DNA from: an uncultured Ruminococcus sp. | Lineage (GTDB): Bacteria; Bacillota; Clostridia; Oscillospirales; CAG-272 | NCBI GenBank assembly: GCA_964384555.1 | Contig: CAYLLA010000002.1 | Location: forward strand, 1,659 to 65,658 | Direction: 5' to 3' | DNA length: 64,000 nt | Translations under genes and position numbers: made by a program | Shown: positions 43,080 through 44,124 of the stretch, one piece after another | Layout of the letters: each line of letters begins with the position of its first letter | Position numbering within the stretch: position 1 is the first letter of the stretch | Notes under the pieces: model-generated | Database searches by the model: none | The model's input: the letters and a program-made list of their open reading frames with translations, nothing else | Told to the model about the DNA's origin: nothing

Positions 43080-44124
43080 TTACCTCACGAGTTTTATAAT
43101 GGGTTTAGATATAAAGTTTACAATGTATGATGCGGCAAGGGAGAGCACCAAAAGAAGCAAAAATACCAAAATGGGATACTTGGCGCAAAACACGAGGTCT
43201 TTCCAAAGAACAGAGTAAAAGAACATATGTGTTAGCCAAATGTTGGTTGAATGCTCGCCCATGTAGCACAGAAAATTATTTAACAGCTGCGGTAGCGGGC
43301 AGATGCACAGTATGGTTATTGTTACGGTGGCCGTAGCCACTGCAACAAAGAGAGAGGGGACAATGCCGTGCACCACTATCATCCCAATTAATGACAGAGC
43401 TGACAATATATATATATATATATATATATATATATATATTATGCAACTTAATCGACTTGATCAAATGGCGCAGATGGGCAATTATCCGGTGCTTGCAGAA
43501 TATCATTCCGATCATGTATGGAAAATAAGAAGTCCCAAGCAAGCCGAGATGTGAAATTATCCACGATGGAATCGTGGCCTCACATGCGCACCAACCCCAA
43601 AAACGGATGCCATATCCGAGCACATAAAAGCCGAACGAGGCTAAAACAAGCAACCAAGACGGACATTTTTGCGCCAGCTTGCAGGATATTGGTTGCAATA
43701 AGACCAGTACTATGTATGTATGTGCATACCACCAAGCGCCGTTATAGCTGTTTTTGAGTGTGAGACAGTGCAGGATAAAATCTTTGAGGCTCCCCGGGAT
43801 CGTCTTGCTGCCAACAATGATGCCTATCAGTGAAAACAGAGCAACGATCACCCAAAATTGAATCAGAAATCTCAATATGCGTTTTAGGCGCTTTTTGAGA
43901 TCCGCATCCGATGATTGAAGATAGTGGGCGTAGCCACTTATAAAGCAATATATCGAAACACAAATATCGCCAAACAAGCCGAAGAAATAGATCAAAGGTT
44001 TGCTGCCGATCCATATCAGTGGCGTGTAGGGAAGGTTCTCGACCCTGCAAAAAAGGTGTAGCATCAGCATAGATAGGATAGCTATGCCTTTAAGCATTTT
44101 TGAATCGCGCTTTGTAATGTCCAT
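43080..44124 (-). pseudogene. Acyltransferase family 3 gene split by a frameshift within (AT)17 (phase OFF)
   Basis: ORF 43276..44124 carries the N-terminal acyltransferase TM segments. ORF 43080..43406 carries the C-terminal TM segments (NIWLTHMFFY) in the +2 frame. The junction is the repeat. Confidence 0.85.
43406..43439. repeat. (AT)17 dinucleotide repeat
   Basis: 34 uninterrupted nt, counted against ORF anchors on both strands. Confidence 0.97.

Follow-up and report, generated by a model that had tools for sequence, protein, structure and literature searches.

Introduction

The closest described counterpart of the locus reported here is pneumococcal wciZ (cps15bM), a capsule O-acetyltransferase gene that carries a variable TA repeat. 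Serotype 15B has the gene in frame and 15C has it out of frame, the two types interconvert reversibly via slipped-strand mispairing, and the 15A copy is degraded (PMC1391919, PMC4432689, PMC5028725, PMC12448661, PMC12534171). The wciZ repeat lies at about nt 413–429, near the 5′ end of the gene (PMC5028725, PMC12448661). Slipped-strand events also turn icaC of Staphylococcus aureus, which encodes a membrane acyltransferase that decorates an exopolysaccharide, reversibly ON and OFF (PMC4432689). In Haemophilus, Neisseria and Campylobacter, surface glycans are modified through simple-sequence-repeat (SSR) contingency loci, such as oafA and capsule O-acetyltransferase genes with homopolymer tracts, and the presence of several SSR loci per genome gives rise to combinatorial surface variants in these pathogens (PMC2651432, PMC5953494, PMC8437040, PMC11868660). 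A recent review has asked whether multi-locus, repeat-driven phase variation is truly restricted to pathogens or whether that picture reflects database bias (PMC11868660).

Decoration of surface polysaccharides governs recognition by antibodies and phages. Capsule heterogeneity in gut commensals is known to come about through DNA inversion, as it does in Bacteroides. Our literature search found no paper linking SSR phase variation to Oscillospiraceae or Ruminococcaceae. Here, we describe an AT repeat in a gene for an AT3-family membrane acyltransferase, located in a polysaccharide operon of an uncultured human-gut Clostridia bacterium. The operon lies within the window, by which we mean the whole 64-kb stretch of DNA that was analysed. 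Like wciZ, the locus combines a TA/AT repeat inside an acyltransferase gene with a Wzy-type setting and a Gram-positive host; it shares with icaC the slippage, here probable, of a repeat in the gene of a polysaccharide membrane acyltransferase, and with the SSR loci of Gram-negative pathogens the intragenic position of simple-sequence repeats in glycan-modifying genes. The tract is, with high probability, a hypermutable repeat that changes length by strand slippage.

Results

The acyltransferase gene occupies positions 43080–44124 of the window, on the minus strand. At gene nt 686 of ~1047 it runs into a perfect (AT)17 dinucleotide tract (43406–43439, minus strand), which was found by direct reading and by Tandem Repeats Finder (period 2, 17.0 copies, 100% matches) and which we regard as the putative hypermutable element. 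An AT run of 16 nt is seen at two sites in the window only, this one and 39485–39502, and 0.00 such runs are expected from 100 dinucleotide-preserving shuffles of the window; a chance origin of the repeat is thus ruled out. Folded as single-stranded DNA, the self-complementary tract has a predicted free energy of -9.2 kcal/mol (z = -2.9).

The part of the gene that precedes the tract (43440–44124, minus strand) starts with the ATG at 44124 and comprises codons 1–228 and the first base of codon 229. The part that follows it (43080–43405, minus strand) contains 107 codons and ends with the stop at 43080–43082; these codons are read only if the number of AT units is divisible by 3. A perfect repeat, inside a reading frame, with a unit length not divisible by 3, is the arrangement looked for in contingency genes. 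In the upstream frame the tract encodes an I-Y-I-Y... peptide. With 17 units, ORF 43276–44124 (minus strand) specifies a product of 282 aa, ending ...NIYIYIYIYIYIVSSVINWDDSGARH..., which enters the tract as ...KLHNIYIYIYIYIYI and then continues into an unrelated, out-of-frame tail (43276–43405, minus strand; VSSVINWDDSGARH...AAVK, followed by a stop). The remainder of the protein is encoded by ORF 43080–43406 (minus strand; 108 aa, SALSLIGMIVVHG...NIWLTHMFFY...), in the frame that 2 extra nt would bring into register. A tract resized in silico to n = 12, 15, 18 or 21 yields one uninterrupted ORF, of 344, 346, 348 or 350 aa. When n = 1 mod 3, a stop occurs 5 codons past the tract (242–246 aa), and when n = 2 mod 3, which includes n = 17, the products are 280–284 aa long. 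The window copy, with 17 units, is OFF, one unit from ON.

These data agree with a sequence-only reading made earlier, in which (AT)17 was described as splitting the gene into these same two ORFs, the second in the frame offset by +2 nt. That reading also held that (AT)18 or (AT)15 would give one protein of about 349 aa. A single protein is indeed obtained in both cases, but its length is 348 aa for (AT)18 and 346 aa for (AT)15. The accompanying remark that all three frames are open across the tract is correct but says little, since no stop codon can arise from (AT)n; 5 codons past the tract, one of these frames does close.

With its frame repaired, the protein matches Pfam Acyl_transf_3 (PF01757) with E = 1.6e-16 and 60.7 bits (cut-off 31). 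Residues 10–336 align end to end with profile positions 6–324 of 326, and this near-full match bears out the suggestion that an acyltransferase-3 membrane protein is split over two ORFs. The two ORFs joined are thus predicted to form one complete AT3-only acyltransferase of ~340 aa. No specific family for the acyltransferase was found in NCBIfam; from membership in the AT3 family, the group transferred is probably O-acetyl. A search with the repaired protein retrieved hundreds of homologues, of which the full-length members have 340–347 aa. Conspicuous among the homologues is a class of 240–300 aa that ends just past the N-I-Y-I-Y... run.

An AlphaFold model of P0001, an in-frame relative with 96% identity, has a pLDDT of 82 and a pTM of 0.84, with ~10 long helices (residues 5–25, 44–69, 79–104, 128–153, 156–175, 184–211, 229–249, 252–269, 274–301 and 312–341). 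The IY run makes up the first residues of helix 229–249, directly after a basic amphipathic helix (214–225), which suggests that in-frame changes in tract length add or remove two residues near the membrane boundary. ON variants among real sequences contain 5, 7 or 9 I/Y residues, which fits such two-residue steps at the start of the helix. The best fold matches in the PDB are weak, namely the transmembrane acetyltransferase HGSNAT (E ~0.03) and, also weakly, GWT1.

Invariant residues lie on both sides of the tract. Across 29 homologues, K12, H23, F61, S63, G64 and Y65 are invariant or nearly so, and the window ORF has them within KGIAILSMLMLH and YCFISGY. The pre-tract part holds family-invariant K12, H23, F51-G52-D53 and S63-G64-Y65. 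A basic residue and a His in TM1, together with F-x-x-S-G in TM2, are what we take, from work on OafA and OafB, to be the catalytic motifs of AT3 enzymes. Beyond the tract, the invariant positions are H247 and G284-x-H286-S287-x-N289-I290-W291...H294-M-F-F-Y298 (P0001 numbering). Because these family-invariant residues sit after the tract, the truncated product is probably inactive.

Gene order and domain matches place the acyltransferase gene in a Wzy-type polysaccharide biosynthesis operon (37329–53011, minus strand). In the order of transcription, this operon encodes a DegT aminotransferase, a Bac_transf priming transferase, a PglD-like acetyltransferase, a GT4, an EpsG-type polymerase, a GT4, a GT2, a second GT2 (containing a CTGT repeat), a GT4, the AT3 acyltransferase, a Gly_transf_sug GT, a pyruvyl transferase, a GT4, a 512-aa membrane protein and an NTP_transf_5 protein. 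The same order is seen in L084, L088 and L093, three of the near-identical contigs described below. Since the Gly_transf_sug GT downstream of the acyltransferase has its own GAGG, ~9 nt before the ATG at 43074, the OFF state need not be strongly polar, although it might be. The 512-aa protein (ORF 38560–40098) is a multi-pass membrane protein for which neither Pfam nor NCBIfam gave a match; its position makes it the probable flippase. Its counterpart in contig L178 has a weak Polysacc_synt match.

Gene content downstream of the acyltransferase varies. A third allele (SRR22923242/43), with 11 AT units, occurs in a locus with other downstream genes. When L178 (SRR22923243) is compared with window positions 37329–43080, the acyltransferase is followed in L178 by a 303-aa pyruvyl transferase, a 426-aa ORF and a 515-aa Polysacc_synt protein. 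The polysaccharide locus is therefore mosaic around the switch gene. Elsewhere in the window, 17.7 copies of an 18-nt tandem repeat (55780–56097) lie in a 950-aa protein (ORF 53464–56316) whose matches, all weak, are ComEC/metallo-beta-lactamase and cell-wall-binding-like; a similar 18-nt unit is repeated 6.4 times at 34153–34270 (ORF 33807–34493, 228 aa). Both regions look like the repetitive linkers of surface proteins.

All three long simple repeats of the 64-kb window fall in this one operon. The second GT2 gene contains (CAGA)11 on its coding strand (equivalent to (CTGT)n; 46373–46419, minus strand), starting 28 nt after the ATG (46447). In this state the frame that opens at the ATG is 26 codons long; with 9 or 12 copies, its product would have 371 or 375 aa. 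With both the AT and the CAGA tracts out of frame, the acyltransferase and the second GT2 are each OFF in this record. The CAGA copy number differs between strains and species, at 11 in the window versus 9–10 and 8 elsewhere. For example, L007 and L009 have 8 copies at the same place, alongside an AT tract, and related loci overall have 8–10. A slightly different flank in L084, L088 and L093 results in a 369-aa GT2 ORF that is in frame from a TTG. Among three near-identical contigs that span the repeat, no variation in CAGA copy number was observed. The comparison indicates that the AT and CAGA repeats are co-conserved across species, and combinatorial switching by the two tracts is plausible.

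Within the 512-aa ORF there is also an in-frame (AT)9 (39485–39502, minus strand), which encodes the peptide AYIYIYIK. This site is interrupted (ttATATATATATATac) and invariant in 15 near-identical contigs; the pure 9-unit tract of the present strain could be a third slippage site.

To follow tract length, we took proteins from the 90%-identity cluster that includes the window's own 282-aa product, and compared the DNA of 15 public contigs (L083–L097), from 15 different samples and at least four accession series. The cluster contains otherwise identical proteins of 342, 344 or 346 aa (ON) and of 274, 276, 278 or 240 aa (OFF), lengths that correspond to 5, 8, 9, 10, 11, 12 and 15 units. At the DNA level, the tracts of the 15 contigs have 5, 8, 8, 9, 10, 11 (five contigs), 12 (four contigs) and 15 units, which puts the gene ON in six of them and OFF in nine. 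The flanks, compared over up to 6.8 kb with reference contig L084, differ by 0–5 mismatches per contig, and mean pairwise divergence of the flanks across the 15 contigs is 2.6e-4 per site (~99.97% identity), while 88 of the 105 pairs are unlike at the tract. Four pairs, with 0 mismatches in 7.0–9.1 kb of flanking sequence, have tracts of 12 versus 11 units (three pairs) or 11 versus 15. Hence, the repeat number varies far above the background mutation rate among near-identical strains. The window allele itself is ~5.6% diverged in DNA from this group, and among the encoding contigs there was no record of its 282-aa product. We also note that a locus of 7–9 kb which is ~99.97% identical over samples of several studies is unusually clonal for a human-gut commensal. 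Such clonality suggests that the samples share a cohort or host, that the strain comes from laboratory animals, or that the element has spread recently. A literature search with the run and assembly accessions, aimed at a common host or a time series behind the samples, gave no match.

The tract extends well beyond this group. Species-representative genomes, mostly Oscillospiraceae MAGs with 61–79% protein identity, have it at the same position, nt 686. In these relatives, tracts of 6 or 9 units accompany an intact gene, and tracts of 8, 11 or 14 units a frameshift. Exceptions are a contig that terminates within the tract, a genome in which a T run comes after (AT)4, and three genomes that lack the tract. 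Human-gut metagenome contigs, identified in a protein-based scan, contain tracts of 5–11 units; a search of the metagenome collection with a pattern of exact flanks and a variable gap gave no match. More distant homologues have interrupted, non-repetitive and stable peptides at this place (NICIF, NTYIF, NMYMF, RTMQII), and the repeat accordingly seems to have expanded from a short motif that encodes N-I-Y-I-F. AT tracts are present at other sites in two related loci: a pure (AT)12 lies downstream of a 511-aa flippase-like ORF (L009, 16658–16681), and a pure (AT)8 lies 57 nt upstream of the next ORF (L011, 9206–9221). These could be promoter or 5′-UTR repeats.

Real variation in length could also come from a neutral mutational hotspot in a dispensable or decaying gene, with no evolved switch and with OFF copies heading towards pseudogenes. 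This is the strongest of the alternatives, although we consider it unlikely. With 6/15 contigs ON, the share of ON copies is near the 1/3 that a random frame would produce, and thus gives no signal that either state is favoured. In addition, ~25 of the 120 cluster representatives listed end just past the IY run, and the purity of a repeat can be kept by slippage itself, in the absence of selection. Selection on the encoded protein, however, is evident. Estimates of dN/dS (Nei-Gojobori) are 0.07–0.09 for the 228 pre-tract codons and 0.11–0.13 for the 107 post-tract codons, with dS up to about 1.1–1.4. The post-tract range includes a comparison between two OFF copies, those of the window (n = 17) and of L007 (n = 14), at dS ~1.1. 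It follows that the post-tract frame has been read and selected over long periods, and on that long timescale OFF states are apparently transient. ON copies occur in the same near-identical strain background, the position of the tract is kept across species, and several of these species also have the second repeat type in the operon, all of which argues against simple decay.

Signs of gene loss are seen in one related lineage of human-gut contigs (L132–134, L150–158). Here, a +1 C (C5 for C4 at ~nt 100; CCCTACACCCCC) truncates the protein at residue 72 or 123, and the AT tract still has 5, 6, 8, 9 or 11 units. Slippage thus continues regardless of function, as a neutral hotspot would have it. 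The C5 run marks either a gene turning into a pseudogene or a short homopolymer that acts as a second indel site; some lineages may be on the way to losing the acyltransferase gene. The pneumococcal parallel likewise has its degraded copy, that of serotype 15A (PMC1391919). For the window copy, by contrast, dN/dS and the absence of other lesions rule out a dead pseudogene. The sequence-only reading had pointed to additional inactivating mutations, together with a lack of length polymorphism, as the signs of such a pseudogene, and had proposed a comparison with orthologous loci. The window copy carries no such mutation; polymorphism is abundant, at 5–15 units with both ON and OFF states in the 15 contigs; and the tract varies among near-identical contigs while being kept across species. 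Taken together, the comparative length variation, the purifying selection and the absence of another lesion support interpretation of the AT tract as a phase switch.

A somewhat less likely alternative still is that the count of 17 is an assembly or sequencing miscount, and that the gene is in reality intact in the organism, with 18 or 15 units. A 34-nt dinucleotide repeat easily gives rise to PCR stutter and to errors in the consensus, the frame is only one unit from ON, and the exact count, which comes from one assembly, could be one unit off. Moreover, de Bruijn contigs built from short reads of this allele are interrupted within the tract: Logan contigs with the window's exact neighbouring GT4 protein end at the CAGA repeat and within the AT tract, after at least 13 units, as expected for tracts that reach the assembler word length or are heterogeneous. 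We found no positive evidence of an error, and OFF lengths are in the majority in independent assemblies of relatives. An internal control is provided by the interrupted AT tract 3.9 kb downstream, which is invariant in the same 15 contigs and argues against AT repeats being misassembled in general. Errors of assembly cannot account for tracts that range over 5–15 units in independent assemblies. A miscount, if there were one, would alter the state assigned to this copy, and not the nature of the element.

Finally, it is very improbable that the gene functions when OFF, whether through separate translation of two pieces (the 282-aa product and one restarted at the post-tract TTG or ATG) or by ribosomal or transcriptional slippage on the AU repeat: gene callers do annotate ORFs of 60–100 aa past the tract in OFF contigs, and a stop is impossible within the tract, but no Shine-Dalgarno-like motif precedes the TTG at 43406 or the downstream ATG, ON alleles are always one continuous ORF, and efficient recoding on a dinucleotide repeat has, to our knowledge, no precedent.

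Discussion

Our data favour a phase switch at the AT tract, and the following mechanism can be envisaged. AT units would be gained or lost during replication, most likely by slipped-strand mispairing at the dinucleotide repeat, which the self-complementary fold of the single-stranded tract would favour. A change in unit number would shift the last 107 codons, which specify three to four TM helices with the invariant His, Ser and Asn, into or out of frame. Unit numbers divisible by 3 would yield the full-length enzyme (ON), and all others a truncated product of 240–284 aa, presumably devoid of activity (OFF). The polysaccharide would accordingly be made with or without an O-acyl (probably O-acetyl) decoration, as the nature of the gene suggests, and this change may in turn alter antigenicity or recognition by phages. 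On this view, switching would be reversible within a clone.

Whether the AT tract belongs to a larger system is a more tentative matter. It is possible, though we would not yet lean towards it, that an uncultured human-gut Oscillospiraceae/Eubacteriales clade keeps a multi-repeat 'phasome' in its Wzy-type operons, made up of (AT)n in the AT3 gene, (CAGA)n in the 5′ end of the GT2 gene and intergenic AT tracts, and yielding combinatorial, slippage-driven variation in glycans. If so, strictly anaerobic commensal Firmicutes would possess an SSR counterpart of the capsule switching that Bacteroides achieves with invertible promoters, and multi-locus SSR phase variation would not be confined to pathogens. 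The locus described here offers a concrete case from an uncultured gut Clostridia bacterium, one that can be checked in metagenomes. There is also a practical side. In the annotation of MAGs, genes of this kind routinely appear as pseudogenes or split ORFs, and they are points at which assemblies of short reads break.

Compared with known systems, the switch itself is of a type already described in pneumococcus, and the host is what is unusual. The tract lies at nt 686 of ~1047 and has 17 units in the window and 5–15 in near-identical strains, whereas that of wciZ, studied by van Selm in 2003, is reportedly short, with about 8–9 units. Given the published position of the wciZ repeat, nt 413–429, the two repeats probably arose independently. 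The bacterium concerned is an uncultured member of the human-gut Clostridia and not a pathogen, and its tract is kept across several species. By TyrRS, its relatives are MAGs labelled Eubacteriales or Clostridia bacterium, with identities of 92% or less. The icaC repeat is a tetranucleotide; that system therefore differs in repeat type, and also in its polymer, PIA/PNAG. The contingency loci of Gram-negative pathogens, for their part, mostly rely on tetranucleotide or poly-G/C repeats, whereas here an AT dinucleotide and a CAGA tetranucleotide are found together in a single operon of a commensal Clostridia bacterium.
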